A stretch of DNA of 64,000 nucleotides from an uncultured Bacteroidales bacterium (GCA_963737255.1 CAVTSB010000003.1:1255-65254), one strand, 5' to 3'. Positions 10,402 to 64,000 are shown, counted from the first letter of the stretch. Translations and numbers: made by a program. The notes: a model not told the origin generated them from the sequence alone.

Positions 10402-11340
10402 ATGTACACCAAAATTATGAATTGGTCCATAAAAGGACTCAAACTGAAATTATTTTGTTTGTTACTGCCAATGAGTCTTCTATTGGTATCATGCAGCAAA
10501 CCCTTTTATCCGGGTAAATCTGATCCGCTATTGAAGACGATGCAGGCATGTTCAATGGAATGGGGTACGAAAGTAACAGCTAAGATTACTGCAAAATTTG
10601 AAGACCTTAAAAAGGGCGGAGTAGTTGAATGGGAGGCCGCAAGGGAAGCCGGCGGAATCTTGTTAAAAGACTTCAAGAACGATTCGATAAAAAAAGAGGT
10701 TTATGATAAATATATTAATTGCATTAAACCTGCTATTGAGAAATTAATATCCTCTGATCAACGGCCAACGGTTGTATTAATCGGATCTAAAGAGGATTAT
10801 ACAACTTATAAGATGAAGGACTTAGAGCAAACCAGTGTAGAATTGTTGCAGAAGAGATTTGGAAACTTCAATGTTTTACCATTCACTGTTAGTTACATTT
10901 GGGACAATGAAGAGTCGATACGTGAAGTCAAGCCGGCAGTCATTGTAATTCATGCTTCCGCATTTCATAATGATCAGCACAAGGACGAAGCGATATCTAA
11001 ATTTCAAGCCCTCATATTGTCTTTGTATGGATTGTCTGAAACAAAATTTTTGGTATTCTCGCGCCTTCCAGAAGAAAATCCTTCTCCTGATCTCTGTCAG
11101 AGATGGAACCGTCAAGTAGATTTCTTGAGTGGAAAAAAATTCCGCAACCGTCTAATTTTCTACCCGATGCCTGGGGAAGAATCAAACTTTACAGGTAAAG
11201 CAGGGATTGAAGTCAGCCAAATAGTAAGATGCTTAAGTGGATTAGAAGCAACGAGTTACAGTTCAGTTTACTTACGTGAAATTGAAAAAGAAGCGCAGCA
11301 ACGGATACTTAATAGTTCATGCACCCTAGTGAGACGTTAG
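10402..11340 (+). CDS. hypothetical lipoprotein
   Basis: The ORF has a signal and lipobox (LLLVSCSK). I recognise no family. Confidence 0.5.
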   Translation: MYTKIMNWSIKGLKLKLFCLLLPMSLLLVSCSKPFYPGKSDPLLKTMQACSMEWGTKVTAKITAKFEDLKKGGVVEWEAAREAGGILLKDFKNDSIKKEVYDKYINCIKPAIEKLISSDQRPTVVLIGSKEDYTTYKMKDLEQTSVELLQKRFGNFNVLPFTVSYIWDNEESIREVKPAVIVIHASAFHNDQHKDEAISKFQALILSLYGLSETKFLVFSRLPEENPSPDLCQRWNRQVDFLSGKKFRNRLIFYPMPGEESNFTGKAGIEVSQIVRCLSGLEATSYSSVYLREIEKEAQQRILNSSCTLVRR

Positions 11341-11470
11341 AACACCAAAATAACATGTAACTCAGGCAGACCGAGCAATTGCTAGTAATTTTAAGGGCTC
11401 GTTTGTAGTGTCGGGATATTAGGTTAGGGTTGAAGTTGAGAATCCTATTTCCGTAAGTTCTTAGGTGTTC

Positions 11471-11722
11471 GGGTTGCTCTCTTTATGTTGCATTGCAGAA
11501 ATGCTTAGGTAATAGGTATGCAACATAAATCGCAACCCTCACTATTGATTAATGCGAGCCTGCTGCATCCAATTTTAATCGGCAATTCGTGGGTTTGCAA
11601 GAAGCAATATTTCATGACACAGCAAGGCCAAGCCCTTCGGGTTACTGCGTAAGCCTTGCTTTAGTCATTAAATACCCCCACTTACATTTGCCGAAAATTG
11701 TCTGCTACTCGCGACGGCTCGC
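11471..11722. ncRNA. candidate structured RNA region (nested helices, class unknown)
   Basis: Hairpin 11471-11538 pairs GGGTTGC/GCAACCC and TTATGTTGC/GCAACATAA. A second domain at 11554-11722 has P1 GCGAGCC/GGCTCGC, P2 AATTTT-CGGCAA/TTGCCGAAAATT, and hairpin 11614-11668 with an 8+5 bp stem and a CCC-UUCG-GG tip. Confidence 0.35.
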
Positions 11723-12239
11723 CTGATAATTAATTCTCGATTTTATTTCAATGTCCAATAAATGTTAAAGGAAATAGGTTTTTTGGCTATGATGTTCAGG
11801 ATTAGAGCCAGTTCTAACCCATCTTAATCATAAATGCTTGTTTAATTGGTATTAGCCTGTATTTCAATAATATACGTATTATTGAATTTGGCAAATAAGG
11901 CCATTCCCAGCCCGTTTAAGACCCGATCTCCCTTTTCCTGGTATCTACCTATTTCTGAAATGCAAAGTGTCCTAAAATGCATTATATCAAGCAAATACGC
12001 GATTTTGTCATTTCTGACATTATATAACAGATTGTATTAATGTATGTTATTGTAATAATTGACACAGGGAATTTGGGAACAGAATTACGGAATAATAATT
12101 CATTACAGTCTTAGGATATCAATCAAAGGATAATAGTAAAATATTTCTGCGATTTTCACTTCCCTATTCTCCAGATATTGCCTAATTTCGATCAACGTAG
12201 AAAGTCAGACAATTGCATCAAGCATTGGAAGTGTTGAGG

Positions 12240-12470
12240 TTTGAAGGGAAGTGGCTGTTGTGACTGACCAGGCAGTGCTATAATAAAACCGTTATGGCAC
12301 AATTATGCCACATAACTGTTTGAAAAGGTGACTGATCTAAGCCATATCCAGGAGTTGCTGGGGCATAAGAGCAGCAGGGCAATTTTGATTTATACTCATG
12401 TATACGACTCAGAGCATACAGAAGATCAGTTGTCCGTTTGATGATCTTTAAGGAAGTTGAAAAAAGGACC
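12240..12470 (+). pseudogene. tyrosine recombinase/integrase, C-terminal fossil with stop and frameshifts
   Basis: AIIKPLWHNYAT*LFEKVTDLSHIQELLGHKSSRAILIYTHV corresponds to the family pattern HxLRHSFATHLLExGxDLxxIQxLLGHxSxxTTxIYTHV. The terminal SPFDDL-like CPFDDL lies in another frame. Confidence 0.7.
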
Positions 12471-12680
12471 ATCATTGAGAATATTTGGTATAAAAGATGA
12501 GTTACTTTAATATGAGTAATAGGAACGTAGATTTTCCGGGTTAGGAATTCTATAACTATAAATTCAACTCATGTGGACAGAGTTTACAACACCACAGAAA
12601 TAAAGCTACATTTTGATGATTTATAACCAGTTAGCAAAAATTTGTGATAATCATTAGAGTTTAATTTAACCCCTAAAGAA

Positions 12681-13901
12681 ATGAAAACAAAGCTTCTAAT
12701 TTTAACAATGATCCTGTTATGTTCCTGTGGCAGCAAAAGCACTCATGATAATAACAACTCTTTTATCAAAATCGACCTCTTTTCAGAGCCCTCATCTGTG
12801 ATTTCAAATCTATCTGACATCGCCTCTAATGTAGAATATGTTCCTCTTCAAACTTCTGAAAATTCTATGGTTTCTACAATTTCTAATGTGAAAACCAACG
12901 GCGATATAATAATTGTATCTAGTTTTAGTTTTAGTAATCCTGAATTAATTTGTTTCGATAGAAATGGGCGTTATCTTAAAAAATTAAGCAAATACGGCAG
13001 AGGACCAGGAGAATACTTTGTTATTGGAGATTTTGATATTAACTATAAAGCAAATATTCTTGTATTGTTATCAAACACCATTATAATGGTATATGACATT
13101 ATAGGGAACGAATTTGTTTTTAATAAGTCTTTGAATTATAACTCAACTTACTACAATCGAATTGATAAAATTAATTTTATTCCAGGTCAAAATAATATTT
13201 TACTTTCATACTTAAGCACTACGTTTGAAAAATTTCGAAATCTAGTAATCAACCTTAATGGAGATACACTTGATACCAGACTCAATAATTACAAATTCAC
13301 AATTGATCCAACTCAAGGAAAGGAACAACAGGTTCTTGCGTCACCCTATGAAAACATAAGTTACAATTATAATAATTCCCTGCATTTTAGAGACTGGTTC
13401 TCTGATACAGTCTTTACAATTGGTCAATCAAATAGTATCATTCCCTATTTAAGGTTTAATTCAAATGGCAAGCAATTTAATCCGGATGATTTGGCTAAAT
13501 TATATGTTTTGCAACATAGTGGAGGTAGTTATCCAGATGATTATGTTACAGTTGATTTTATTATGGAAAGTCCGCGATATATAGTTTACAACTATACATA
13601 TAAAAAGGCAACTATTTATGAATTACATGATAAGGTAATGAATAAAAAAATTGGAATTAGGACCAAACCTTTCTTAGAAGATGATATTACGGGCGGACTA
13701 AATGTTGAGCCTAAATTAAGTTTCAATGGCAAATTGTATTCCTGGGTTGAAGCAATCGATTTGAAGAACCATGTTTCAAGCGAGGAATTTAAGACTTCAG
13801 TTGTAAAAAATCCTAAAAAGAAACAAGACTTAGAAACATTGGCTAACACACTTAAAGAAACTGATAATCCGGTTCTAGTTGTAGTGACTCTTAAAAACTG
13901 A
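12681..13901 (+). CDS. 6-bladed beta-propeller lipoprotein (BF3164-like family), paralog A
   Basis: It has a lipobox (LLCSCG) and the shared motifs SDIASNVEYVPLQTS, GRGPGEYF and C-terminal ETDNPVLVVVTLKN. Confidence 0.7.
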   Translation: MKTKLLILTMILLCSCGSKSTHDNNNSFIKIDLFSEPSSVISNLSDIASNVEYVPLQTSENSMVSTISNVKTNGDIIIVSSFSFSNPELICFDRNGRYLKKLSKYGRGPGEYFVIGDFDINYKANILVLLSNTIIMVYDIIGNEFVFNKSLNYNSTYYNRIDKINFIPGQNNILLSYLSTTFEKFRNLVINLNGDTLDTRLNNYKFTIDPTQGKEQQVLASPYENISYNYNNSLHFRDWFSDTVFTIGQSNSIIPYLRFNSNGKQFNPDDLAKLYVLQHSGGSYPDDYVTVDFIMESPRYIVYNYTYKKATIYELHDKVMNKKIGIRTKPFLEDDITGGLNVEPKLSFNGKLYSWVEAIDLKNHVSSEEFKTSVVKNPKKKQDLETLANTLKETDNPVLVVVTLKN

Positions 13902-26262: not shown

Positions 26263-26760
26263 TCATACTGACTTCATGTAATTTACAAGACCCTTTTTGT
26301 CGATTATCTCCCTGAGCTTATCCGGAAGAGGATCAAACTCGAACCTGTTTTTCCCAACAATGATTTCCCCTCTTTCAAGTCTTATCTCGACATTATCTCC
26401 CGGTCTGTAAGCCTCAACAGCTTCCTTATGCACAAAAAGCGCCAGCCCCTGGTTTATTGATGACCTGTAAAAGATCCTGTTCACCGATTTCACGATCACA
26501 GCCTGTACACCGGCATACGCAAGTCCTACCGATGGATGCTCCCTGGAGCTGCCACAGCCAAAATTCTCGCCCGCGATGATTATGTCACCTGCCTTCACCC
26601 CGGAACTGAACGAAGGATCAAAATCCTCAAAAAGATGTGGAATAATCGATGCCGGATCAGAGCTTAAAACATTGTAAGTGTATTTTCCCGGAAACATCTG
26701 ATCGGTATTCAGGTTGTCAACATCCGAGTAGTTCCAGACAGTTCCGACCTCCTGTTCTCT
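26263..26760 (-). CDS. aconitase-family small subunit (LeuD-like, short archaeal type), pair 1
   Basis: GDIIIAGENFGCGSSREHP is present. The frame is open upstream through VGTVWNYSDVDNLNTDQMFPGKY, and the start codon is unclear. Confidence 0.7.
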   Translation of the reverse strand, partial: REQEVGTVWNYSDVDNLNTDQMFPGKYTYNVLSSDPASIIPHLFEDFDPSFSSGVKAGDIIIAGENFGCGSSREHPSVGLAYAGVQAVIVKSVNRIFYRSSINQGLALFVHKEAVEAYRPGDNVEIRLERGEIIVGKNRFEFDPLPDKLREIIDKKGLVNYMKSV

Positions 26761-28055
26761 CCCTGCCTGATCTCCGATGTTTTGCTCTGTCCGGCGGAAA
26801 AGGGATACCTTTTGTTGTCCGGAATTCTTCGGGGATCGGTAATTACACCCGTCAGCGCCGAAGCAGCCACGGTGGCCGGAGATGCCAGATAAATTGAGGC
26901 CTCCCTGTTTCCCATTCGTCCCGGGAAATTACGGTTGGCCGAGGAGATTACAACGTGCCCGTTCGCGGGTATCCCCTGGCCTGTACCGAGACATGGTCCG
27001 CACGAAGGGGTCAGGATGTTGGCTCCCGATTCAATGAATGTTGTTATGAGTCCTTCACTGACAGCCTGAAGCAATATCTGCTGTGAAGCTGGTATTATAC
27101 TGAGCTGAAATCCCTCCTTGATCCTGTTCCCCTTCAGGATTCCGGCAGCGGCTCTCAGATCTTCAATCCGGCCGTTTGTGCATGTTCCGATAAGGCCTTC
27201 ATGAACAACAGTGCCGGCTGTTTCCGGAACTGACCGGACATTGTCAACATTATGGGGTGCTGCAACCACAGGAACAATCGCGGAGATGTCTATGCTATCT
27301 CCCGGGAATAAATCGCACCTTCGTCGGCCCAGACAGGATTTATACTTTGTGTTTTATCCGCCAGGAATTCCCCGAGTATCTCATCAGCCGGGAAAACGGC
27401 ATTTTTTGCTCCCATTTCCGAAGCCAGATTAGCCATAGTCATTCTGTCGGAAATTGAAAGATTTCTGACCCCTTCGCCATGGTATTCTATTGACATATAA
27501 TTTGCACCATCCGATCCGATCATTCCAATTATCCATAGGGCAAGATCTTTTGCATATACCTCTTCCTGCAATTCACCCTAAGATTAATCCTGATTGATTC
27601 AGGAACCCTGAACCAGGTCTCTCCCCTTTTCCAGATCCCTGCCGATTCGGTTCTGTCGATACCTGCAGCAAAAGCATTAAAAGCTCCGGCTGTTGATGTA
27701 TGGCTGTCGCTTCCTACAATCAGCATTCCCGGCCTGGCATGGTACGACATTATCTGGTGGCATATTCCTTTGCCGGCATCATAGAATTTATTAATTCCCT
27801 GATCTGCAACAATATCCCTTATTTCCTGATATTGTGTTGCCAGCTTTGCATCAGCCGGCGGGGCATTATGGTCAAGAACAACAAGCATCTGACCGGGATT
27901 AGCCACCCTGGTACCTCCCATTTTCTGAAAAGTCCTGTAAGATGCTTGCGGTGTTGTCGTGTGTAAGAATAATATCGGGACGGGCAAATACAATTGCTCC
28001 GGCATTTGCCCTAAAAATTTTTTCAGCGAATGTCAATGGTTTCATTTTGCACTAA
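26709..28055 (-). pseudogene. aconitase-family large subunit (LeuC/homoaconitase-like), pair 1, at least 3 frameshifts
   Basis: The pieces are 27529..28005, 27290..27571 and 26709..27269, plus an N-terminal MKPLTFAEKIF in a fourth frame. Motifs are IVGSDSHTSTAG, GTCTNGRIEDL, SCGPCLGTGQG and SSANRNFPGRMG. Confidence 0.8.
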
Positions 28056-28087
28056 TATGGTTTTGACAAAAGGGGATCCCGGATTCA

Positions 28088-28600
28088 TCAGAGAAGCCCC
28101 CCTTTCTGATATATTTCAAACTGGACTTCGGAAAATGGATCAGCTGCGACATTTTTATTATTTGCCTGATTTTCAATTTTTCCGTGTTATCAAATTGATA
28201 CTGTACCCGATCTCCATCAGATATTCCGAGATCTCCGATATTTTTGCACGTAATGACCGGGAAGGCTGCATTTATTGCATTTCTCTCATAAATTGCCCCG
28301 AACGATTCTGCAACAATAGCCTGAATACCAAGTGAAATAAAACAATCAACTGCCTGCTGGCGTGAACTTCCTGATCCGAAATTCTTTCCCGCAAAAACAA
28401 TATCACCCGGATGTGCTTTTTTTGCAAAATCCTCATACCCTTTAAGGTTATCGAATGTGTATTGCCCCATTTCCCTGATATCGGTTATTGCCAGGTACCT
28501 GTTATGAAAGATCATATCAGTATCGATATTGTCCTTTCTGACAAACCAGATCCGTCCTTCAATTATCTCAGGCTTCTTGTTTTCTACAGTAATCGGAACT
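28088..28600 (-). pseudogene. aconitase-family small subunit (LeuD-like), pair 2, frameshifted near both ends
   Basis: GDIVFAGKNFGSGSSRQQA is present. The family-like C-terminus PFSEVQFEIYQKGGLL* lies in another frame, and the N-terminal IEGRIWFVRKDNIDTDMIF lacks an in-frame ATG. Confidence 0.7.
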
Positions 28601-28619
28601 CTCCCGGCATTCCTGCCCT

Positions 28620-29901
28620 TTACCGGATTATGGCTGACCCGAATACAGCAGGTTTATCCGGGATCCTGTCGGGTGTTGTAATAAATCCTGCAATTGCAGA
28701 GGCAGCAACAATTTCGGGTGATGCCAGATAAACGCTTCCCTTTCCCTGTTTGCCCGGAAAGTTCCTGTTTCCGGTGCTGATTGTAACCTCACCCTGTCCG
28801 TTCTGCCCAACCTGACCTGCTGCACATCCTGCACAGCCGGCATTTGAAACAAGGGCTCCTGAATTCTTGAAATATCGAAATCAGGCCCTTTTCAAGGCAG
28901 CTTTTCCATATCCGGTCAGTTGCCGGCACAATTTTAAGAACAACTCCCGGAGCAACCTTTCTTCCCTTCAGTATCCGTGCAGTTTTCAGCATATCCTCCA
29001 TCCTTCCGTTTGTGCAGCTGCCGATGAAAGCGGAGTCAATCTTCATTCCGTACAAATCCCCTGCGTAAACTGTATCATGAGGTTCTCCCGGTCGGGAAAC
29101 CATAGGCCTGAAATCGTGAAACATCAATGTCGAAAGTTTTGGAATACCAGGCATCAGTATCAGCATATACAGGATCAAAGCCTTCATCTGACCGGGATGA
29201 ACAATATTCAATAATTTCTTCTGAAGGAGGAAACAGAATTATTATTGCACCCATTTCTGTTGCCATTGATGAAATTGTTATCCTCTCGTCAAGAGTCAGA
29301 TTTTCAGATGCTTCTCCATAAATTTCAACTGAGTAGCCAAGGAGAGAATTGGCTCCGAACACACTAGCAGGTTCAGAACAATATCCTTTGCACTGATATT
29401 CGCAGAAATTCCCCGGTAAGTTTAATTTTACTGATTCCGGGATTTTGAACCATATTTTGCCCTTGTTCCATGCCGAGCGATATCCATATCGCCCATTCCC
29501 TGTCCGAATGCACCGATTGCTCCAAGAATATTTGCATGCGAATCGGTAGAAACTGCAGTTGAACCGGGATAGACAATCCCCTCTTCAATAAGTATATGAG
29601 TTCCGATACCTGCATCAATATCATAAACTTTTATTCCGTTCTCACGTGCAAAGAGGCTGCAGATATGCTGGTTTACAGCATATTTCTGATCAGAGCCCGT
29701 AGGATTGCAGTCGAATGTGAAAAATGTTTTCTCCGGATTTTCGATCTCAAGTCCAAAATCCCTTATATTCCTGACAACATTTGCTCCCCCGAAATCGCGG
29801 GCAACCCTTGCATCTATTTCTATATCCACAATATCACCCGGCTTAAGTATATCATATTTTGAATGAAGAGCCAGTATCTTCTCAATCATGGTCATTGCCA
29901 T
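28620..29901 (-). pseudogene. aconitase-family large subunit, pair 2, at least 6 frameshifts
   Basis: The start MAMTMIEKIL is at 29901. Motifs VSTDSHANILGAIG, ISAKDIVLNLL, FIGSCTNGRMEDM, GCAGCAAGQVG and ISTGNRNFPGKQGKGSVYLASPE are scattered over three frames. Confidence 0.8.
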
Positions 29902-29950
29902 ATGCTCAAAATGTTTAATAATTGCGAAGATAATAAATATTTTGCAGAGA

Positions 29951-30805
29951 CTATTTAAATTGTGCCCTGTAATCTCTGGGGGAAAGACCTTCGGTTTTCC
30001 GGAATTGTTTATTAAAGTTGGAAATGCTCGAAAATCCGCATTCAGAGGCGATTTCATTAACCTGGTACTCGGTTTCACGAAGAAGGTAACAGGCTTTGTT
30101 CATCCTCACCCTGTTAAGATATTCGACAAATCCGGCGCCGCAGTTCTTTTTAAAGTACCTGCTGAATGAAAATGGACTCATATGGGCTACCTGTGAAACC
30201 TTTTCGAGAGTTATACGGTTTGTGAATAATTTTCCCTTATGATAATTATAAACATCAGTCATTTTTTTATTTCCTCTTTCATCAAATGCCTGTTTATAAT
30301 TTTCTGAGCAAAATAGATCTCTTTTGTCGGAGGCGGAAATCAATTTGATAGATCTTGAAAAAAACTAATCATTTTTTCAATTCCCTTATTGTGAACCATG
30401 TTTACGAGGTAAGGTTCAGCTTTTCTGCATCATCGACAGAAAATGCAATTCCCCTTTCCGAATCAATAAGCAGCTCTTTAACAGAATGAAGTTCGTGCTG
30501 TGACAGCAGTGCTTCACCAAGTGATGATAGCTTAAAATGAAGCAAAATGCTCCTGGCTCTTCCGGAGCATGAAGAACCATTCCTGTAATAGTTCCAGCAA
30601 TGCGGAATATTACCACCAATAAGCACAAGATCATAATTATCGAAGATCTCAACACTGTCTCCGACAATTCGTGTTCCGTTGCTTTTGGTGTTAAGTACAA
30701 TCTCATATTCAGGATGAAAATGCCAGAACCCGTTGGTTCTGAAATATATTCAGCCCTGAATCCACCACTGTCGTCATAAGTTATCTTTTCAAGTTCAGCA
30801 ACCAT
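29951..30805 (-). pseudogene. AraC family transcriptional regulator (cupin-like N-terminus plus HTH), frameshifted
   Basis: The C-terminal HTH reads ITLEKVSQVAHMSPFSFSRYFKK...GFSSISNFNKQFRK. The N-terminal half is split between ORFs 30416..30805 and 30402..30626. Confidence 0.75.
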
Positions 30806-53225: not shown

Positions 53226-53399
53226 ATGGATCAGAAAGAAATAATAATTCTTGTTGCAGTTCTTGTTTTCGTAGCTGTTCGGTTATATCAGAAGTATGCA
53301 AAGAAGGGCAAGGGTGTAAAAGGCACCAGGGAAACCACTTCTTCAAGCTTTTCCCAGTCGGCAGGTGAGGATGATTATGAGCCTTATTCGAAAAAGTAG
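53226..53399 (+). CDS. 57-aa single-TM small protein (hypothetical; not in ORF track)
   Basis: I translated MDQKEIIILVAVLVFVAVRLYQKYAKKGKGVKGTRETTSSSFSQSAGEDDYEPYSKK myself. It has one hydrophobic helix and a charged tail. Confidence 0.3.
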   Translation: MDQKEIIILVAVLVFVAVRLYQKYAKKGKGVKGTRETTSSSFSQSAGEDDYEPYSKK

Positions 53400-53400
53400 A

Positions 53401-54690
53401 TCAGCTTCGGTTCCTCGAAATCAGGTAACGGAACGGATTAAAGATCTTCTGCAGCAGACGCAGGTCATCTGTGATTATCTCTGCGGTGCCCTGCATATTC
53501 TGGGTGAAGTCAAGCTTATTACCGTACAGTGTGGTCAGTCCCGACGGAAAATTAAGCTCTATAATATAGGTGTCGCCTGATGGAACAAGGGACTTTGATT
53601 TTACAACACCTTTTATCATGCCATATTCAAGATACGGGTAACCGCTCAGTTTGATATTGACTTCCTGTCCGGGTCTGACTTTCCCGGAGCGGTTCATCTT
53701 CAGATTTATCCTTCCGACAAAATCACCGGTAACAACCGGAACAATACTCATTACCGGCTCGTCTCTGTTAACAGTCTGGTTTTCGCTCCAGAATTTAGTA
53801 AATGTCACGACGCCGCTGAATCGTGCAACAAGCAGATAGGTGTTTTCCCACATCTTCAGCTGGGCTTTAAGGTTCAGGAAAGATTCGCTGAGCACTGAAT
53901 TGTATTTTTCCCCCTCCTCCAGCTTTTTTATCCTGTAATCCTGGAGAAGCTGCCTCTTCTCGGCAAGTTCGATTGATTTTGCCGAATGATCGAGGCGTAC
54001 CTGCTGGAGTTCGATATTAATCCTGATAAGCGACTGGCGCGATTTTTCAAGTTCACTTTCGGAAAATACCCCGCTTTCGTGAAGCAATGAATCCCGACGG
54101 TACTTTCTGGCTTCCAGCGTCTGGTTCTCCGCATATAATTTCTCCTTTACCTTTACCCTGCCTATGTAGGCAAGTATGCCGTCTATTTCGTCGGTAATGG
54201 AGTTGGCCTTATTGCCGTAGAAATCATTGATGTTGTAATTATTGTAATCTGAGAGAGCTTTCCGGAAGGTACCCCAGAATCCCTGAATTTCTCCCAGTTC
54301 AGTAAATTCAGGCAGATCAGGTGGCAGGAGCGAACCCGGATTTTTTAGAGTGTCAATGAAGGACCGTAGTTTTTCAATTTCACTGACTGATGCTGCAGTC
54401 TCCATGACGGCCAATAATTTACCCTCATTTACAATTTCCTTGTCCTTCACATAAAGGTTCTGAATCTGACCCGTAACTTTGGATAAAAGGGTAACAGGTG
54501 GATTGACTGTTGTAATTTCCACAGGAGCAGGTATGGTATCGGGATATTTTATCAGCCACGCAAAAAATATAAGCACTGCAAAAACAAGAAGTATTATTGT
54601 ATTGCCACATCTTACAATCTTTGCCGGGGTATGCCCCATTATTTCATTTACCGGTTCAGAGTAGATTATATCGCTTTTCTTTTCATCCAT
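53401..54690 (-). CDS. HlyD family secretion (membrane fusion) protein
   Basis: It has an N-terminal TM segment, a long coiled coil and a beta-barrel C-terminus. It lies immediately downstream of the peptidase-ABC exporter. Confidence 0.8.
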   Translation of the reverse strand: MDEKKSDIIYSEPVNEIMGHTPAKIVRCGNTIILLVFAVLIFFAWLIKYPDTIPAPVEITTVNPPVTLLSKVTGQIQNLYVKDKEIVNEGKLLAVMETAASVSEIEKLRSFIDTLKNPGSLLPPDLPEFTELGEIQGFWGTFRKALSDYNNYNINDFYGNKANSITDEIDGILAYIGRVKVKEKLYAENQTLEARKYRRDSLLHESGVFSESELEKSRQSLIRINIELQQVRLDHSAKSIELAEKRQLLQDYRIKKLEEGEKYNSVLSESFLNLKAQLKMWENTYLLVARFSGVVTFTKFWSENQTVNRDEPVMSIVPVVTGDFVGRINLKMNRSGKVRPGQEVNIKLSGYPYLEYGMIKGVVKSKSLVPSGDTYIIELNFPSGLTTLYGNKLDFTQNMQGTAEIITDDLRLLQKIFNPFRYLISRNRS

Positions 54691-54698
54691 ACTCAGGT

Positions 54699-56887
54699 TC
54701 AGTTTCCAAGTTCAAGCTGGTTTTTTACAAGATTATAATAAGCTCCGCGCTTTTCAATAAGATTTTCATGTGTTCCTGTCTCGGTGATCTGCCCGTCATC
54801 AAGAACGACAATCTTATCGGCATTGCTTACTGTACTTAGCCTGTGAGCGACAATTATCACTGTTTTCCCCCTGAAAAAATCTCTCAGGTTTTCAACTATT
54901 GCCTTTTCAGTATTGGCATCGAGTGAATTTGTTGCCTCATCAAACATAAGAATATCAGGATCTTTATAAACGACCCGGGCGATCAGTAACCGTTGTTTCT
55001 GTCCTTCGCTGAGTCCATGGCCGTCGGACCCAATTTTCGTATTGTAACCAAGGGGCAGGGATTCAATAAATTCCCTGATATTTGCCGTGCCTGCAGCTTT
55101 TTTAAGCTTTTCTTCATCGAGTTCGCGTATTCCAGGTGCAATATTTCCGGCAATCGTATCAGGAAATAAAAATCCATCCTGCATTACTGCCCCTGCTTTC
55201 TCCCGCCACAATTTCAGGCTGATATTTGGAAGGGGGATATCCCCTATCGTGATTTCTCCTGTTACTGGCTGATAAAATCCCAGAAGCATCTTAAGCAGCG
55301 TTGTCTTTCCGCTTCCGCTCACACCTACAATTGCAGTTATTTTATCCTGTTCAATAACAAGATCAGTATTTTTTAATGCAAATGGGGAACGCGGCCCTTC
55401 ATACTGATAAGAAAGATTAGTCAATCTGATATTTTTATTTTCAGGAAGCCTGGCTACCTTGTTCTCAGAATCAGTCTCTTCATCATCCATATTATGAACC
55501 TCAGCCAGCCTGTCGAGGCTCATCCTGGCATCCTGTGACAGTTCTGAAGAATCCTATGATCTGGTTGACCGGGACATTAAGCTGACCGATTATGAACTGA
55601 ACGGCAAGCATCATACCCAGGGTCATGTTTCCCTTAAGAACTGCGGTGGCAGCAACAATTGTAATCAGTATGTTCATTATTTCGTTTATCAGGGTGGCTC
55701 CGGCCGACTGGTACTGGATTAGCCCGAGTCCTTTGACTTTCAGCCCGAAAAGTGAAGCCTGATGCGTTTCCCAGTCCCACCGCTTGCTTAATTCGCTCTG
55801 CGTAAGCTTTATCTCCTGCATACCGTTTATTATGTTTATAAGCTTTGAATTGGAGGCTGACATCTCTTTAAACCTCTGGGTATCGAGCTTCGCCCTTGAG
55901 TTCATGAAAAGCGACACCCACAGCAGATACAGAAGGGTGCCTGCAAGGAAGATCAGAAATATCTTAAGACTGAATATTGCCAGTACAATACCGAATACTA
56001 TCAGGTTAAAGAATGAAAACAATATGCTGAGGCTTGCCGATGTAAGAAATTCCTCAATCCTGTTGTTGTCATCGATGCGCTGAAATATGTCGCCTGTCAG
56101 CCTTGTATCAAAAAATGCAATCGGAAGGGCCATAAGCTTCTGAAGGAATCCGGAAATTATTGCCACGTTTACACTTGATCCGATATGAAGAAGCAGCCAA
56201 CCGCGCATGAATTCGACTGACATTCTTCCAATAACCAGGGCGAGCTGGGCAAAAAGAATCAGGTAAATAAATCCTATGTCATTATTATTCAGTCCAATAT
56301 CGATTATTGACTGGGTAAGGAAAGGTACGATAAGCTGAATCAGACTCCCGATAAGGAGGCCAAGAATAAGCTGTCCGAGATACTTTTGATACAGTTTGAA
56401 ATACTTCAGAAGGAATCTGAAACCTTTTGATTTTTGATGTTCATCTTCAATATTGTAAAGAGCCGGTGTAGGTTCTATTATCAGTGCGAGCCCCGTTTGC
56501 TTTCCTTCGGTTGCCGAACTGATCCATTTTTTTTCAAATTCTTCACGTGAATATCTGACGAGCCCGGTTGCCGGATCGGCAACCCATACTTTTTCCCTGC
56601 TGATCTTGTAAACAACAACAAAATGCTTCTGGCCCCAGTGCACAATACACGGGAGGGTCATTTTTTCCGCAAGCATTTCAAACGGGATCTTTACCCCAAG
56701 TGTCCTGAATCCCAAAGAATCAGCTGCCTCGGAAAGTCCCAGAAACGAAACACCGCTTTTTGTTATGAAGCATCTTTTTCTCAAGGTAATCGAGTGAAAA
56801 GTTCTTTTTGTAAAACGCTGCTACCATTTTCAGGCAGGCAGGACCGCAATCCATCGCATCATATTGTTTTACAAACGGAAATAACAT
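54699..56887 (-). pseudogene. peptidase C39 domain-containing ABC transporter (PCAT), at least 2 frameshifts as assembled
   Basis: The N-terminus MLFPFVKQYDAMDCGPACLKMVAAFY, from the ATG at 56887, carries the C39 catalytic Cys. The TM domain is ORF 55501..56784. The NBD is ORF 54699..55523 (GVSGSGKTT, LSEGQKQR, ILMFDEATNSLD). Slips lie near 56783 and about 55530. Confidence 0.85.
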
Positions 56888-57020
56888 TTTCTACGATCTT
56901 GTCGTTTAAATACGAAAGTAAAGATATTTATTATTTAGTAAAAAATACTTCATTAATTCGGGCATCCGAACTGACAGATCAACACTTTTAACCGGGGAAA
57001 TACTATATTTGTCAACAATT

Positions 57021-57600
57021 ATGCAGAAATAATCAGCGATTGTTCCGCAAAATTTCAGATAGTAGCAATAATTGAAGGCATTCGCCAGCAGGACGACGAA
57101 ATACTTAACTGGCTTTATGATAATTATCGTGAGACGGTCAGGCACCATATACTCAAGAACAGTGGCTCCGAAGCTGATGTCTCTGATGTATTCCAGGAAT
57201 CAATTATAACCCTCTACAATCAGATATCGGGAAATGAACTTAAGCTGACAACTGATCTTAAGGGTTACTTTTTTGGTATCGCGAGGAATATCTGGAGCGC
57301 CACTCTGCGGAAAAAGCTGAGAAATACTGAAATTGATCCTGACTTTCCTGATGACGGTGGCAGTGATGAAGCCGGGAGTGAAATTCTTGAAAGAATTGTG
57401 AGCAGGGCATTCCGAAACTTAAGCCTGATTCCCAGACTATTCTTACTCTGTTTTCGGAAGGCAATTCATATGAGGAAATAGCGCTGAAAATGAATCTCAA
57501 GAATGAAGACCTAGCAAGGAGAAAGAAGTATCTGAGCAAAGAAACCCTCATGGAACTTATCAAAGAGGATCCTGAATATAAGGATTATCTGAATTTATAA
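57021..57600 (+). pseudogene. sigma-70 family (ECF-like) RNA polymerase sigma factor, frameshifted
   Basis: The region-2-like part is DVFQESIITLY...GYFFGIARNIW. The region-4-like part SQTILTLFSEGNSYEEIALKMNL lies in another frame after about 57420. The ATG at 57021 is also out of frame. Confidence 0.65.
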
Positions 57601-57749
57601 TAATAGAGGAATAAGAACCAATCCGAGCAATATTGCTGCAGCACCTGCCAGAATATCAGATCTTTCTTGAATAATAAAGGGATTCATTGTTCCCGTAAAT
57701 AACCAGCGCAGACCAGAAATAAGGATGTGACCGCAGCATATCGGCTTTC

Positions 57750-60689
57750 TTAAGATAATTCATGCCTTGCTTTTCTGAGTGCATCACTTTTTGTTTCTCC
57801 CTTTTTGAGATATTTGTAAAAATTCTTTACAATTTCGGTACCTGACCTGTCCTCAATCTCCCACATTGACATAACAACTGACTGACTTCCGGAATATATA
57901 AATCCCCTTGCCAGGCTCAGTATACCCTCACCTGAATTCAACTTTCCCGATACCAGTGTTGCACGAACTGAGTATTACCATTTTGGCCTTAAGCGGTATA
58001 TCATATACCTCATAAGTATTCAGGTTGCCGTCCTCAACAGAGTCCGTCGGCCTGGTAAAACAGCATTTTGGAATGCATCGGATACTGATCATTCAGGACA
58101 GTATGCATCGCAAGGTGAATAATATCATAATTATGTGCTTCCGCCTTAAACCTCATTTCCGTAGCGCCGTCATTTATACACAGAGTTCCTTCCGTAAGTT
58201 CTGAAACATATTCAGCTTCCTGGCGGGCAAACGGCAGATCATTGATACCTGACAACCTGACCTGCCTGGTCTGAAGCACTGAATCGATGTTGATCGTCCT
58301 GGTATAAACCGGGGCAAATGCTATAAGACTGTTTGACATGCTGACAGTCATTTTTTTCACTGACTCTGCCAGCAGTGTTGCAGAATAAGTATACGAGATC
58401 CTGAATTCATTCATCATATAGGGGAGTTCCCTGTAAAGGATATCATCCCCTTTGAATTCCTGATAAGGAATCGTCTCAAAAGGGATATATGAAAGAATAT
58501 TATCGGGAGAAATTAATAACTTGTCTGATATCAGGTACTTTCGCACGGGTTCCAGAATTTTCCTGTAAATCCGGCCACCGTAAAGTTGATATTTCATGAA
58601 TTCTGACTTTGCATCCATGAAAGGTGAAGGCAATGAGAGAAGCTTTCTGAATTCCCTTACATTATCAAAAAAACCGGAATCAACAGGCATGGTAAAAAGT
58701 TTGGTGAATTTCCTGTTAGCCAGAAAAATATAGATAACAGTATCAGATACCACGTAATTCAAATAGTTCGTGTTTCTGCCGGCAACGGAAGGAATATCAC
58801 CGGGCTTTACGACTTCTGTGTTATATTTCAATAAGTAATAACCGGGATACTGCTTCTCGAATAGTTTCACAAGCGAATCACGTCCCTGCGCAGCATTAAA
58901 GACATTACCCTTCCATTCTGCTATAAGCTGGGCGTCAGGTGATTTTTTATTGTTTTCCTCCGAAATTTTGGCGTTATAGAAACTGATCTCTGTTTTGAGC
59001 TTTCGCTCAAGCTCTGCAACCTCAGCGGGAATATGGAACTGAGTTGCCTTAAGTTCACGGGTTGATGCGAGCAGTCCAGCTACTTTGCTCTTTTCAGCGT
59101 ATTCAAATGCCTTCTCCAAGGTATTCCTCACGCCCGGTATGCCTGTAACATAAATCAAAATCCCTGATTGCTTCAACGTAGGCATCCCTGTAACGGTCTC
59201 CCAGTACGAGCCTGCTTTCCTCTTCGGTGATATTGATCCTTACCTTTTCCAATAACGCAACAATTATTTCAGACGTGCCGGAAGCTGCGATCAGATAACC
59301 GTAATTATCAGATTTTCTGAAAATATCCCATAGGATCCGGTATTTTGCGTTCAATAAATCGATCGACCATCTGTCGGGCTCAATCAACGCAATATCAGGA
59401 TTTTCAACGCCGGTATACCCCGGATTGTCCGGAACAGAGGTGAAGAGTAATTCCTGTATCCTCCTGAGAGCCTTTGCCGAATCTCCGTTCTCATTCAGCG
59501 TCAGGGCATACCCGAGAATAACCTGGTTTCTCAATGACAGATCTTCCTTATGATCATTGAGATAACCGATACACAGTTCATAAAAAAGAAGCGATTTTTT
59601 GATGTCCTTCCTGAATGTTCTCAGGTATTCTGCATAGTTTTTCAGCACCTCAAAATAATCTTTCGAATTCTCTCCATACGATTTTTTAGCTTTTTCAAGA
59701 GAATTCAGGATAAGCTCCTCGCCCTGATCAATCCTTCCTGCGTTAGCAAGCACAACAGCAAAACTGTTTACAAAGTTAAACGACAATATTGAATTTGATG
59801 ATTTTGTCATTTCAAACCCACGCTTAAAATACTCATCGGCCTTGTCGTTCAGCCCAAGGAAGAAATATGTGGCCGCCAGACTATTGAGCAGATTAATATA
59901 ATTTGCATCCTTCGGAAGGAAGTTTTCTTCATAAATCAATTCCGCCTTCTCAAGGTAAAGAGCAGCCCTGGAATAGTCGGACAAGCTTATATAGCATATC
60001 CCGATATTGGAGTAGATCGTTGCCCGATCCTGACTGTAATTATCATTTCCCCCGTTTATCAGTTTCAAAGCTTCATTTCCGAAACTGATTGCCCTGGTAT
60101 ATTCGTAAAGTCCGAAATTTGCCGTGATAAGATTCGACAGACCCTTTAACAACACAGGGCTTGATTCACCATGGAGCTTTTTATCTATTTCAAGCGACAT
60201 GAGGGTATATTCCTCCATCCTCTTGAAATCACCGAAATTGTTATACACTACTCCCAGGTTAAAAAGACATTTTGCATGAATTTCATCATCGCATTTCAGG
60301 CGTTCCCGTATGGATGAAGAAAGAGAGAACCAGACTGCAGCTTCCTTGTTTTTACCTGTTATCAGATTATACACACCAATGTAATAATAGGAATCGGAAA
60401 AAATCAGATTATCATTTTTTTGTCCACTTAGATTTTTTATGATGGAATTTACGACGATTCCTGACCTGACGGTATCGCCTGAAGTCATATAAGCCTGAAA
60501 TTCATTATTCAACCTTTCGAGCGCACGGTTTAAAGAATCATCCTGGAGTCCGGTGCCTGATTCCTGGTAATTATTAACCAGCGACCTTGTGAAATCAGGT
60601 TCCTCCGTATCTGAAGCAGTTGCACAGGCTATCCCTGAAATGCAAAGGAAGATTAGTTTAAACCACCATATATGATTCTTATAAATCAT
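57750..60689 (-). pseudogene. TPR-repeat plus CHAT (caspase-like) domain protein, at least 3 frameshifts as assembled
   Basis: The pieces are 59103..60689 (signal and TPRs), 58034..59185 (ending HLAMHTVLND) and 57750..57941. The catalytic-Cys context VILSSCNTG is readable between the pieces, in another frame. Confidence 0.75.
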
Positions 60690-60926
60690 CTGGTACTTGC
60701 TGATATTTATGAAAATCCCCGCTTAAAGATCACAAGTATAATTGAAAATGCCAAAATTTATCTCAATCTATCAATTTTTTTTCATCAGTAAGTTACTGAT
60801 TTTCTTGACATAAGTTTTTTTATGAAAAAAAGTTGACTTTTTTTGGTCACAAAACCATAGTTTCCGACATGTAACAATAGAATTGCGAATTACCCTGACT
60901 AAGTATCAACGACTAAAATTAAAAAG

Positions 60927-61064
60927 ATGAAAAACCTGAATTTTGAAAAAACCGAAGAGATTTTTGATGAGTACACCCTTACTCCGGAAGAAATGATTTG
61001 TATTAAAGGTGGTGATGCCGGCGATCCGATTGTAAAACCAATGCCTCCGGTTGTCAGAATTTGA
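60927..61064 (+). CDS. double-glycine leader peptide precursor (GG-Bacteroidales type), 45 aa, not in ORF track
   Basis: I translated MKNLNFEKTEEIFDEYTLTPEEMICIKGG / DAGDPIVKPMPPVVRI myself. The leader ending LTPEEMxxIKGG is the pattern cleaved by C39 exporters. A weak hairpin plus a T-rich tract follows at about 61079-61107. Confidence 0.65.
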   Translation: MKNLNFEKTEEIFDEYTLTPEEMICIKGGDAGDPIVKPMPPVVRI

Positions 61065-61310
61065 AAAAGGAATAATCCTCCCGCCTTGGCGAAGGCAGGA
61101 ATTTTATAACATTATTGGCTGTGTTTTGTAGTTGAGTTTTCAGCTATCGATGCCGGAAGATATGTATTACGATCGGTGTCGGATGGCATGCGAAGGAAGC
61201 AGGTCGCATTTAAGTCCTGCGCGAATGATATTCTGAATTATAGATTTAATGGATATATGAATATCTGTATAATTAAGTATGGAAATAAATATTAAACAAA
61301 ACATAAAATT

Positions 61311-62055
61311 ATGAAAACAATTGATTTTTCATATTTCATCGAAAGGTACATAGCCGGAGAGATGGATGAAGCCGAGAAACAGTGGTTCAGAAATGAAATG
61401 GACGGAAACGAAAAGCTTCGAAAAGAAGTGGAGATCAGACGGAAAACGGAAGCAATCCTGAAAAATCAGGATCTTCTGAATCTCAGAATTAAGCTGGACT
61501 CCATAGAAAAGAAAAGAGCTGTTGAAGTTAGCGTCAGGAGGCAGACAAAGCATACAACAGTTAAGTATGCCGCAATATTTGCCGGTCTGATTATTATCGG
61601 CGGGATTGCACTGTTCTCGAATAAAGGTCCTGATTCAGGCGAAATTTTTGAGAAGTATTACACACCATACGAGGCAACGACAACACTCAGGTCCGACGTT
61701 GTAATGGATAATTCTGATTTTAACCTGGCCCTTGAGTATTATGAAATACATGACTACAGGAATGCTGCCATATACTTCTCCAGAGCTCTTGAGAACACAC
61801 CGGGGGACATGCATTCAGCTCTGCTGAACGGGATTTCGAATTTTGAAATCAGCAATTATCCTGAAGCCGAAGAGTTCATTATCAAAAGTGATCGATGACA
61901 ATAAAAACCTGTATATCGATCACGCTCAGTGGTACCTGGCTCTATGCTACATAAAAACTGACGAAAATCAAAAAGCAGCTGAACAGCTGGCCATAATTGA
62001 AAAATCAAAAAGCATTTACAGGAAGGATGCCAGGAAAATTCTAAGAAGCCTGTAG
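61311..62055 (+). CDS. anti-sigma-like single-TM protein with periplasmic TPR region, one frameshift as assembled
   Basis: The N-terminus FIERYIAGEMDEAEKQWFRNEM is typical of anti-sigma N-termini. The TM segment is YAAIFAGLIIIGGIALF. TPR-like repeats continue in ORF 61843..62055. Confidence 0.55.
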
Positions 62056-62074
62056 CAATATTAATAACAAGCAA

Positions 62075-62911
62075 ATGTTTAATCTTTCGGGAAATAATAA
62101 GGGAGAATCGGTTAAACCGGATACAACCGGTCAGACCAGTGAAAAGGTCCTGCAATCGTTGAATCAGAATTTAATTAATTGTCCTGCAGTATTGTCCGGA
62201 ATGTCCCGCGAAATGCGGACTCAAATGAACTCAATTGTTGCATTTGCATATCTTCTTAATAAAAAGGAATATACAGACGAGGAGAGGGATGAATTCAGCC
62301 TTCAGATCTATAACTCATGCGAACAGATGATATTGTCTTTTTGACAATTTTCTTGATTCAGCAGTCATTGATACGGGTAATTCAAAAACTGAAGCAGGAA
62401 TTTGCAATCCAGACGAAACATTTAGTGATCTTTTTACGGAATTCAGGGAAGATATTGAGAAAGGATAAATACAAGGACATTATCCTTGTGTCCGAAAACC
62501 AGCCGCTTAAGAATGCGTGAGTACCTGGTTGATACTAACAGGGTGACAAGGGTAATTCGCAATTTGTTCCAGAATGCCCTCAGCAATACAAAATCAGGTT
62601 ACATTAAGGTCGGTTATTATGTCAGGAATGGTGACTGACATTCTATATCCTTGATTCCGGCGAGGGATACTTCAGGTGCCGGGAATTTCTTCAGACGCAG
62701 GATCTGGCCGAATCCCTTTCAAAGTTCAATGATACATATTCAGCCATGAATCTGATCCTTACAAGGAATCTTATTAAAATGATGAATGGATCGGTATGGA
62801 TTGAATGCAACGGATTAACAGGATCCGGTATTTACTTTTCAATTCCGGTTTCAACTTCAGATGTTGAATCTTTGCCCAAAGAATATACGAACAGTATGAT
62901 TGCTATCTGAT
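62075..62911 (+). pseudogene. soluble sensor histidine kinase (no TM), several frameshifts
   Basis: The H-box context is SREMRTQMNSIVAFAYLL. The N-box VIRNLFQNALSNT and the G-boxes (ILDSGEGY, GSGIYFSIPV) are readable only by switching frames. Confidence 0.65.
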
Positions 62912-62992: not shown

Positions 62993-64000
62993 TTACTTTT
63001 TCATTTCCAGGATCTGGACTTCAGTTCTTCTGTTGAGCCTTCTCCCCTCTGATGTAACATTGTTCCCTATGGGCGACGCATTTCCATAACCTTTATATTT
63101 CAGCCGTTCAGCCGATACTCCGTTTTCGGTAAGAAAATTGACTACAGACAGCGCCCTTTTTTCAGAAAGGACAAGATTGTGTTCATTATTTCCGGTGGCA
63201 TCAGTGTATCCTCCAATCTCAACTATCAGCTGATTGTTGCCGCTCAGAAGATCTGAAAGCTTGTTCAGTTCCGACAGAGATTCCTTTCTTAAGTTCCCAG
63301 GAATCCGTTTCGTAGAAAATGTTGGCGAGGAGCATCTTTTCACCAACCTTCAATGGACTCAGCTTTATCTTCATCAGGTACGGTTTGAGGACAGAGTGCT
63401 GTCCTTCAAACATAAAATTTTCCGAATAAAACAAATAACCTGCCTTGCTGACATTCAGTGCATAATTAAATCCTGAAGGCAGGCAGACCAGGAAATTCCC
63501 GTTTCTGTCGGTAGTATTCTTCAGGACTGGTTTCCCGGTGGAAAGATTGATCAGTTCAAAGTCGGAAATAAGCATTTTCCCGTTCTCCCTGTCCGTTACC
63601 TTACCTTTAAAATATGCAACAGGGTCAGGTCTGTACCGATTCAGGGAGGTTAAAAGAGTAAATGTTTTTTCCGGTTTCGTTATCTCTTTTTGAAGAAAAA
63701 TAAGCTTTCTGGCCGCCAGATTCAATCACCAGCCCCATTTCATCATTAAATGTATTTATAGGATAACCAAGGTTCAATGGTTCAGTCCAGGTAGTATCAT
63801 CAAGCATACGGGTCATGTAGATATCGAATCCTCCCATTCCCGGCAATCCGTTTGAAGAAAAATAAAGTGTCTTACCGTCAAAATGAATGAATGGCGACAT
63901 TTCATCACCTTCAGTATTTATTTTCTCTCCCAGGTTTACAGGTTCCTTCCATTTGCCTTTTTGATCTGAAACTGAATACCAGAGATCCTTTCCTCCTATC
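62993..64000 (-). pseudogene. OmpA-family protein with PD40/TolB-like repeats and carboxypeptidase-regulatory-like domain, frameshifted, 5' end off window
   Basis: The C-terminus reads IVEIGGYTDATGNNEHNLVLSEKRALSV...NRRTEVQIL. Upstream pieces 63219..63725 and 63625..63900 lie in other frames. Confidence 0.7.

Follow-up and report, generated by a model that had tools for sequence, protein, structure and literature searches.

Introduction

In two described systems, a protein that joins tetratricopeptide repeats (TPRs) to a caspase-like CHAT domain is coupled to a sigma factor and to the protein that restrains it. DdvA is the one periplasmic TPR-CHAT anti-sigma factor to have been studied; its TPR-CHAT part has been proposed to act as a site-1 protease ahead of RseP, its activating signal is still unknown, and in the second system, Craspase, the anti-sigma-like protein Csx30 is cleaved (PMC11506125). 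The fused DdvA type has been reported only from Myxococcota and one Comamonas (PMC11506125). The present analysis concerns a cluster of seven genes at positions 53401-62911 of a 64,000-nucleotide stretch of DNA (the window, referred to throughout at its full length) from an uncultured Bacteroidales bacterium (GCA_963737255.1 CAVTSB010000003.1:1255-65254). The cluster encodes a TPR-CHAT protease, a sigma factor of the extracytoplasmic function (ECF) type, a protein with a single transmembrane (TM) segment and TPRs that resembles an anti-sigma factor (the TM-TPR protein), a precursor peptide with a double-glycine (GG) leader, a peptidase-containing ATP-binding cassette transporter (PCAT) with an HlyD-family adaptor, and a soluble protein resembling a histidine kinase. 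Comparative analysis suggests that these genes probably form one functional signalling unit. By analogy, they may well constitute a dedicated signalling cassette of a large uncultured Bacteroidales clade, a split DdvA/DdvS-like system with a secreted peptide of its own, a reading to which we give an even chance.

The locus resembles DdvA and its sigma factor DdvS in combining an ECF-type sigma factor, a single-pass anti-sigma or anti-sigma-like protein, and a periplasmic TPR-CHAT part with a His-Cys dyad, and the same proteolytic logic can be proposed for both. Unlike in DdvA, the anti-sigma-like and TPR-CHAT parts are two membrane proteins in every locus examined, and the former has a small TPR domain of its own; in addition, the cassette has no zinc-binding anti-sigma motif, adds a soluble kinase and a GG peptide, in many cases together with an exporter, and lies among housekeeping genes of a Bacteroidales host with no CBASS or CRISPR regulon nearby. 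Because the single-polypeptide feature and the defence regulon are both missing, the cassette cannot be filed as a member of the DdvA/DdvS family. Type III-E Craspase (Cas7-11, the TPR-CHAT protein Csx29, Csx30, Csx31, and RpoE) likewise couples a TPR-CHAT protein to an ECF-like sigma factor and a restraining protein, but it is cytoplasmic and switched on by target RNA on Cas7-11, whereas the protease here is predicted to be extracytoplasmic and its candidate trigger is a peptide. Neither Cas7-11 (gRAMP), nor cas genes, nor a CRISPR array appears in the neighbourhood gene tables.

Further likenesses are found among peptide-dependent systems. With ComC/ComAB/ComDE and BlpC/BlpAB/BlpHR of streptococci, the cassette shares a double-glycine precursor, a C39-type PCAT with an accessory protein, a short unmodified peptide, and likely autoinduction; however, the streptococcal receptor is a polytopic membrane histidine kinase working with a LytTR response regulator, whereas output here would pass through a sigma factor. 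A functional analogy can be drawn with the DegS-RseA-RseP-sigmaE pathway of Escherichia coli, in which a free peptide C-terminus (YxF of outer-membrane proteins) activates a site-1 protease against a single-pass anti-sigma factor, although DegS is a PDZ serine protease, its ligand is a misfolded porin, and no homology links it to the cassette proteins. Both cassette TPR proteins are predicted to be extracytoplasmic, unlike the RRNPP receptors, and the cluster holds no helix-turn-helix or Opp genes; TPR similarity to Rap proteins is generic only (E = 6e-9). In Nostoc, the CHAT protease HetF has been linked to heterocyst patterning. The PCAT HetC likewise takes part in heterocyst patterning, an instance of peptide-based developmental signalling (PMC10986499); unlike the present genes, the cyanobacterial ones are not clustered and come with no sigma/anti-sigma pair.

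The preliminary description of the window knew of no system with this composition, and that assessment stands: no description of the gene combination was found in searches of the full-text literature, and a paper reclassifying ECF sigma factors makes no mention of CHAT. To our knowledge, peptide signalling in Bacteroidota is essentially undescribed. The phylum is rich in ECF sigma factors, with about 22 per genome (PMC7826278). What is proposed as new is that a sigma/anti-sigma switch operated by TPR-CHAT comes in split form, with a secreted peptide dedicated to it. If true, this would give Bacteroidota their first quorum- or self-sensing pathway based on a peptide, and a TPR-CHAT (caspase/separase-type) protease would for the first time have a dedicated secreted peptide as its natural trigger; the cassette would in effect be a split DdvA with a known ligand. 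It would also add an uncharacterised sigma/anti-sigma family with a candidate promoter of its own. As the candidate ligand is encoded beside the protease, the question of what triggers TPR-CHAT proteins becomes directly testable with a synthetic 16-mer, which is relevant to bacterial signalling, ECF sigma factors, and CHAT or caspase-like proteases.

Conservation and Genomic Contexts

The preliminary description had placed seven genes within 53401-62911, and all seven were recovered there by open reading frame (ORF) listing, translation, and profile searches (53401-62910). It had also held that the idea of a circuit would fail if the genes were not co-conserved elsewhere. They are: a scan based on CHAT alignment, with one genome per species, returned 407 matches, all of them uncultured Bacteroidales metagenome-assembled genomes, and when loci were retrieved for the best 80 (CHAT identity 45-65%), the whole cluster was present in the same gene order in every sufficiently long locus among these best 80 of 407. 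A second scan, anchored on the sigma factor in metagenomes, yielded 76 unique loci. Counted only where the flank suffices, CHAT adjoins sigma in 53 of 54 loci, and the remaining parts are present as follows: TM-TPR protein, 27/28; kinase, 23/23; PCAT, 48/52; HlyD, 34/41. Synteny within a lineage was considered and rejected as sufficient proof of linkage, the flanks with DUF349 and CTP synthase on one side and OmpA and a radical-SAM gene on the other being kept as well, in all 80 CHAT-anchored loci and in most sigma-anchored ones. Since clade synteny cannot separate function from inheritance, the argument for linkage rests on loci with different flanks (L089, L094, L096, L092, and L177).

An exhaustive profile search for distant CHAT relatives gave 34,780 clusters at E <= 1e-30, of which about 35 belong to the window's clade and are followed by a plateau of outgroups; identity between outgroup and window-lineage proteins is 32-40% for sigma and 28-34% for the TM-TPR protein. 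All seven parts are present in L089, in an order and between flanks unlike those of the window: HlyD, PCAT, kinase, TM-TPR, and two peptide genes run divergently from CHAT, which is followed by sigma, and the group lies between xylose-utilisation genes and an SprB-type adhesin. L094 has kinase, TM-TPR, and four tandem GG peptides divergent from CHAT, then sigma, with no exporter within 10 kb. L096 has sigma, CHAT, GG peptide, and TM-TPR beside a photolyase and a receiver protein, and L091 keeps the window's gene order between partly different flanks. In L092-type loci (5159-13351), sigma and TM-TPR overlap in one operon facing a 413-aa protein with a type IX secretion system (T9SS) C-terminal sorting domain, then CHAT, and the group directly adjoins a tyrosine-integrase island. 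On the short contig L177, a GG peptide gene is divergent from CHAT and no TM-TPR gene follows.

Peptide, TM-TPR, CHAT, and sigma thus recur together in at least three unrelated flanking contexts, and their adjacency, which the preliminary description had feared might be coincidental, is not. The associations are nested: sigma, TM-TPR, and CHAT form a core, which the GG peptide, usually with the kinase, has joined in most lineages. PCAT-HlyD is a separable module, attached at two different positions or else absent from the locus and perhaps encoded elsewhere; its occurrence at two different positions beside the core argues for a functional link. Tandem TPR-CHAT paralogues of 1233 and 1103 aa at L176 (8001-15015) come with no sigma, TM-TPR, or peptide gene, indicating that the wider TPR-CHAT family has other uses; they are preceded by three large proteins (697-844 aa, no Pfam match) and a 90-aa TPR protein.

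Protease, Sigma Factor, and Anti-Sigma-Like Protein

The TPR-CHAT gene (~57586-60689, minus strand) encodes about 1030 aa, lies in at least six pieces in the window, and is matched by Pfam TPR_12 and CHAT; an intact orthologue, P0001, is 96% identical. The protein begins with a hydrophobic segment that resembles a signal sequence, continues with about 12 helical pairs of TPR type and the CHAT domain, and ends in a TM anchor followed by a basic tail. From the signal-like segment and from the C-terminal TM helix with basic residues after it, both located by hydrophobicity scan, the TPR-CHAT body is predicted to face the periplasm, tethered by the C-terminal helix. The motifs of the His-Cys dyad, HLAMHT and LSSCNTG, are intact in the window, and residues H858/H862 and C909 are invariant in the family alignment. 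An AlphaFold2 (AF2) model built from 59 sequences (predicted local distance difference test, pLDDT, 82) contains about 12 helical repeats and then an alpha/beta caspase-like domain. Its best Foldseek match in the PDB is DdvA (8rot_A, E = 7e-12), the transmembrane anti-sigma factor of Myxococcus xanthus, with separases and the TPR-CHAT subunits of Craspase coming after it; as modelled, the protein has the DdvA/separase/craspase fold. PADLOC reported no defence system, only one weak TPR match (to CHAT) and generic P-loop ATPase matches (to PCAT).

The sigma gene (57041-57600, plus strand; ~186 aa, TTG start, broken in the window) converges on the CHAT gene, the two overlapping at their 3' ends. 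The window protein matches TIGR02937 at 54.5 bits against a cutoff of 42.9, whereas the matches to Sigma70_r2, at 23.6-31.5 bits across window and outgroup sigma proteins, and to r4_2 are weak. Only the sigma-2 and sigma-4 regions are carried, as in ECF (group 4) factors, lengths are 176-207 aa, and relatives have intact 186-aa orthologues. The window protein also gives a weak match to the type III-E RpoE-like model NF041236 (E = 1e-4).

The TM-TPR gene (61311-62055, plus strand; ~247 aa, two pieces) has TPR matches in Pfam. Its product is laid out as an N-terminal cytoplasmic helical domain of about 80 aa, one TM segment at approximately residues 85-103, and a periplasmic domain of three to four TPRs. 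In the hydrophobicity scan, 68 of 72 orthologues have one TM segment, flanked by basic residues on its N-terminal side and by the TPR domain on the other. This predicted topology, single-pass with an extracytoplasmic domain, is the pattern of class I anti-sigma factors, and a segment reading YxxGEMxxxExxWFxxEL appears by eye to fit the helix pattern of an anti-sigma domain without its zinc ligands. On the strength of its topology, its constant company with sigma, and the overlap of the two orthologues in one operon in L092-type loci, the TM-TPR protein is a putative anti-sigma factor.

Peptide and Exporter

The precursor peptide gene (60927-61064, plus strand; 45 aa, intact in the ORF listing) reads MKNLNFEKTEEIFDEYTLTPEEMICIKGG|DAGDPIVKPMPPVVRI as leader and core, so that DAGDPIVKPMPPVVRI is the predicted mature peptide; the double-glycine leader (...LTPEEMICIKGG) ends ...EEMICIKGG. 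The identical peptide is on record on 22 contigs examined. Across the family, with 87 distinct cores, the leader is canonical (…LSNEEMIxV[KR]GG) and conserved in 89 unique precursors. The cores are 13-20 aa long, hold three to five Pro residues, start acidic or Gly-rich, carry a net charge of -1 to 0, and end in -PxxPP[VI][KR]I; the C-terminal residue is Ile in 73 of 87, and Cys hardly ever occurs. Strains with a synonymous divergence (dS) of 0.1-0.6 in the neighbouring genes share one and the same peptide sequence; this invariance, together with the conserved C-terminal motif and the near-absence of Cys, suits a ligand more than a toxin shaped by an arms race. The peptide matches no model in NCBIfam, Pfam, or PADLOC, the curated GG-motif precursor models included. 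Tandem copies occur at several loci: five identical ones in L038 (8701-9613), two diverged ones in L069, two in L089 (9341-9669), and four with slightly different C-termini in L094 (8848-9600).

The PCAT gene (54699-56887, minus strand) encodes about 728 aa in three pieces, with a C39 peptidase, a six-TM domain, and an ATPase (Peptidase_C39, ABC_membrane, and ABC_tran). Peptidase_C39 matches cover both N-terminal fragments, ABC_membrane matches at E = 1.6e-27 and ABC_tran at E = 1.3e-30, and TIGR03796 and TIGR01193 align across the fragments; as the gene is frameshifted, there is no full-length score. Intact 728-aa orthologues are found in relatives. The catalytic motifs read from the window's translation are QYDAMDCGPAC for Cys and HWGQKHFVVVY for His, and the C39 peptidase is accordingly predicted to be of the active type. 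Peptidase and ABC domains in one polypeptide with a GG-leader substrate nearby are the marks of a peptide exporter of this class. The HlyD-family membrane-fusion (adaptor) protein (53401-54690, minus strand; 429 aa, intact, one N-terminal TM segment, HlyD_3 and TIGR01843) is encoded directly downstream of PCAT in relatives as well; its exact window sequence is not on record. Some loci of the syntenic clade have lost part or all of the exporter. At L144 (4454-7118), DUF349 directly adjoins sigma, neither PCAT nor HlyD is present, and the peptide gene is kept; a co-loss of peptide and exporter considered for this locus was rejected when a relaxed search found the peptide gene. L153, L156, and L174 (4907-9842) keep PCAT and have no detectable HlyD.

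Cis-Regulatory Elements

Between the peptide and CHAT genes lies a strongly conserved block, a T-tract followed by TGTCACAAAA-N11-GACATGT, of which the window copy, a promoter-like element at 60845-60875 (plus strand) 5' of the peptide gene, has G at the first position. The motif takes the form (T/G)GTCAC AAAA-N11-GACATGT and can be generalised to TGTCAC-N15-GA(C/A)(A/C), or TGTCAC-N15-GAMM. A regular-expression search finds a single copy in 50 of 80 loci, invariably oriented with the peptide gene; in the window the motif occurs once in a three-mismatch search, which found no further regulon-type site. In L089, L091, L094, and L096, whose flanks differ, a TGTCAC box lies 68-92 nt 5' of the first peptide ATG and is followed after 15-16 nt by GACA, GAAC, or GTAC. 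L177 has the related form GATCAC-N15-GGAAC, and in L092 the box stands in front of the CHAT operon. TGTCAC-N15-GAMM looks like a bipartite promoter for an alternative sigma factor and precedes the peptide/TM-TPR/kinase operon, not the sigma gene; it would presumably be read by the cassette's own sigma factor. A shared motif for the peptide and exporter operons was sought and none was found, the sigma-PCAT intergenic region having only housekeeping-type -7 boxes.

Directly 3' of the peptide stop codon is a GC-rich hairpin followed by a T-rich stretch (61074-61101, plus strand). The terminator scan flagged the stem on the minus strand; on the plus strand, the same stem is followed by ATTTTAT, and a stem is kept at the same place in relatives (CTGTTTT...AAAACAG). 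Standing ahead of the TM-TPR and kinase genes, the hairpin might terminate or attenuate transcription, and its conserved position after the peptide stop suggests high expression of the peptide with partial read-through into TM-TPR and kinase.

Proposed Mechanism and Alternatives

In the proposed mechanism, modelled on DdvA/DdvS and more loosely on Craspase-Csx30-RpoE and DegS-RseA-sigmaE, the N-terminal domain of the TM-TPR protein would sequester the ECF-like sigma factor at the membrane, and PCAT-HlyD would remove the leader and export a 13-20-aa Pro-rich peptide ending in -PP[VI][KR]I-COOH, putatively a pheromone. By its invariant free C-terminus, the peptide would be bound by the TPR array of CHAT or by the TPR domain of the anti-sigma protein; recognition would switch CHAT on as a site-1 protease that clips the periplasmic part of the anti-sigma, and intramembrane proteolysis would then free the sigma factor. 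The freed sigma factor would transcribe the peptide/anti-sigma/kinase operon, which in L089 also includes the exporter, from TGTCAC-N15-GAMM, and the outcome would be autoinduction with built-in negative feedback. Activation by the peptide in this specific manner is offered tentatively, at somewhat less than an even chance. A chain that starts with binding of the secreted -PP[VI][KR]I peptide to the TPR array in the periplasm, proceeds to site-1 cleavage of a separate anti-sigma by CHAT, and so releases a sigma factor with its own promoter type is possible, if rather doubtful when all its links are taken together.

A number of observations count against this account. The mechanism is built on comparative genomics, and peptide binding, cleavage, and sigma release enter it as steps that we infer. 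The conservation data come mostly from one clade whose housekeeping flanks are syntenic too. The preliminary description had assigned the sensor side to an anti-sigma/sigma pair and a CHAT protease, for which DdvA/DdvS and Craspase-Csx30-RpoE are close precedents, but its anti-sigma label is backed by no family match from profiles, the PDB, or AF2 with Foldseek. Pfam gives no anti-sigma family for the TM-TPR protein, whether at full length or for the N-terminus alone, the N-terminus has no sequence match in the PDB, and a single faint match to zf-HC2 (E = 0.12) appears in one of nine members. The AF2 model has a pLDDT of 62, with three N-terminal helices at about 80, and Foldseek returns weak matches to small TPR proteins only and none to an anti-sigma factor; all public sources label the protein 'TPR protein' or 'hypothetical'. 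In the window's lineage, the sigma and TM-TPR genes are not adjacent. The sigma and PCAT genes carry ordinary Bacteroidetes -7 boxes, TATATTTG and TATCTTTAC, without TGTCAC, and since the exporter has no such motif, its co-regulation with the peptide is not shown in the window arrangement. L092-type loci have sigma, TM-TPR, and CHAT without peptide, kinase, or exporter, so the peptide cannot be the universal signal for this module. The exporter is missing beside the peptide gene in L094, L096, and L144; separate, independently distributed modules for exporter and peptide had been named as fatal to the circuit idea, and the exporter is indeed separable, yet it remains linked to the core at two positions. 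Nor does the account explain the kinase.

Three other explanations start from the same genes. The peptide could be an unmodified linear bacteriocin, a Pro-rich antimicrobial exported by PCAT-HlyD, with the remaining genes serving regulation or self-protection; a GG leader, PCAT, and HlyD are indeed the standard export set of bacteriocins, tandem amplification of the peptide gene, seen in some genomes, is common for them, and the Pro-rich core ending in -P-[KR]-[IL] presumably resembles the C-terminus of insect apidaecin. The cores, however, are short (13-20 aa), acidic to neutral rather than cationic, nearly free of Cys, and not amphipathic, no immunity-like gene is present, and the peptide is invariant among strains with neighbouring-gene dS up to 0.6. 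Moreover, the locus belongs to the conserved core of hundreds of species and is not a strain-variable island, and the peptide stays beside CHAT and TM-TPR where the exporter is absent, all of which makes a bacteriocin improbable. Another unlikely proposal, if a little less so, takes the peptide not as an activating ligand but as a substrate that CHAT matures or destroys, or as a securin-like pseudosubstrate inhibitor of CHAT, with sigma released upon loss of the peptide or by another cue. GG peptide and CHAT are the most constant neighbours, always divergent, even in L177, where TM-TPR is missing; every core starts acidic or Gly-rich, often D/E then P, which could be a caspase-type site; and the structurally related separase has a pseudosubstrate for its regulator (PMC11506125). 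On the other hand, no cleavage-site preference is known for this CHAT family, the strictly conserved Ile-COOH is more readily explained if the free terminus is recognised than if the chain is cut internally, and a sigma-type promoter before the peptide gene fits positive autoregulation.

The cassette might instead be a DdvA-like module that senses the envelope or phage through an external signal, the peptide and exporter being members of its regulon or a separate neighbour. The L092-type sigma/TM-TPR/CHAT loci, which have no peptide and lie beside an integrase island, would suit such a module, as would the control of a defence island by DdvA/DdvS and the dispensability of the exporter for adjacency. 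Set against this are the lack of defence genes nearby (PADLOC matches are generic only), the place of the peptide gene inside the TM-TPR/kinase operon with the only special promoter conserved across at least five contexts, and the joining of PCAT-HlyD to the peptide operon in L089, and an external signal is judged about as improbable as a bacteriocin.

Histidine Kinase

The soluble histidine-kinase-like protein (62075-62910, plus strand; ~277 aa, five pieces, no TM segment) matches HisKA and HATPase_c in the window and in its orthologues, and its ATP-binding motifs are intact; 65 of 66 orthologues have no hydrophobic segment. Of 66 orthologues, 51 have His in the H-box, whereas the other 15, which are the window's subclade (loci L004-L029), have Arg: at 62195-62225, the window reads SREMRTQMN, with Arg replacing the phospho-acceptor His of the S-H-E-M-R-T found elsewhere. 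That Arg-type kinase genes are intact and under purifying selection suggests a function independent of His autophosphorylation. The gene is missing in four loci, and the neighbourhood gene tables list no response regulator in the cluster. A circuit logic of the Com/Blp type, which the preliminary description had read from peptide, exporter, and kinase, does not hold for the kinase, which lacks membrane and sensor domains, comes with no response regulator in the cluster, has lost the phospho-acceptor His in the window's subclade, and is absent from some loci; a role as an accessory cytoplasmic modulator is proposed. Stand-alone receiver proteins are encoded a few genes away in L096 (1759-2244, 161 aa) and in L002 (1560-1961, 133 aa), the latter, from the window's clade, adjoining a Cpn10-like gene; such proteins are possible partners of the orphan kinase.

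Frame Disruptions in the Window Copy

Five of the seven genes had been described as frame-disrupted, and alignment to contigs of close relatives from other samples (L001/L087, L084, L086, and L088, 96-98% identical to the window at the DNA level, and L085, 89%) bears this out, with 15 single-base coding indels relative to all four relatives. Of these, 13 are insertions and two are deletions, and none lies inside a homopolymer. PCAT has two insertions (55540 and 56788), sigma an insertion at 57067 and a deletion at 57414, CHAT six insertions (57615, 57657, 57762, 57951, 58047, and 59115), TM-TPR one insertion (61872), and the kinase insertions at 62332, 62454, and 62516 and a deletion at 62635. 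Every cluster gene is intact in the relatives, except that TM-TPR of L001 has one in-frame stop. Frame-corrected window genes have a ratio of nonsynonymous to synonymous divergence (dN/dS) of 0.08-0.14 relative to L084, compared with 0.03-0.14 between intact strains, and comparison with the relatives found no nonsense codons or larger deletions in the window's cluster genes. A second patch of indels lies at 26263-30364 (minus strand), where overlapping ORFs in different frames, several per gene, take the place of two aconitase-family genes, which carry large- and small-subunit domains, and of an AraC-type regulator gene. The genes between that patch and the cluster are intact, and the 12 kb upstream of the cluster are clean. 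At 62993-64000 (minus strand), the gene for an OmpA/PD40/TPR outer-membrane protein, 645 aa and intact in relatives, has insertions at 63283 and 63632.

Given the intact relatives, the purifying dN/dS like that of intact copies, and the second patch in aconitase-family genes, the disruptions are very probably local assembly or polishing errors that carry no information on how the cluster works. Real frameshifts, in a cluster truly decaying into pseudogenes, would account for the packing of 15 frame-breaking indels into five genes beside 12 clean kilobases, and a 96.7%-identical strain, L001, independently has an in-frame stop in its TM-TPR gene; but the bias usually runs towards deletions, whereas 13 of the 15 changes add one base each, none of them in a homopolymer; nonsense mutations and larger deletions are lacking, and the frame-corrected dN/dS is the same as between intact strains. 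Like patches in the aconitase-family genes and in the OmpA-family gene after 62993 also speak against decay, as does L084, a related long-read-style contig with split genes of its own elsewhere, and we regard real decay as highly improbable. Local patches of single-base insertions in this assembly thus mimic pseudogenisation. The L001 stop itself (4049-4099, also in L087; 96.7% identical, from another sample) is a single in-frame codon and could be a real loss-of-function variant with constitutive sigma activity or a sequencing error.

Flanking Genes

Housekeeping genes flank the cluster, with DUF349, CTP synthase, and YidC upstream and the OmpA/PD40/TPR protein downstream. A radical-SAM gene near the cluster was considered as a peptide-modifying enzyme and rejected, being part of the syntenic flank and absent from the other contexts; its 209-aa product is one that we take to be QueE/activase-like. 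Between HlyD and DUF349, at window positions 53226-53399 (plus strand), lies an ORF of 57 aa that is absent from L089, unannotated everywhere, and kept in position in L002, L003, and L085; it encodes one TM helix and a conserved C-terminus reading ...DDYEPYSKK.

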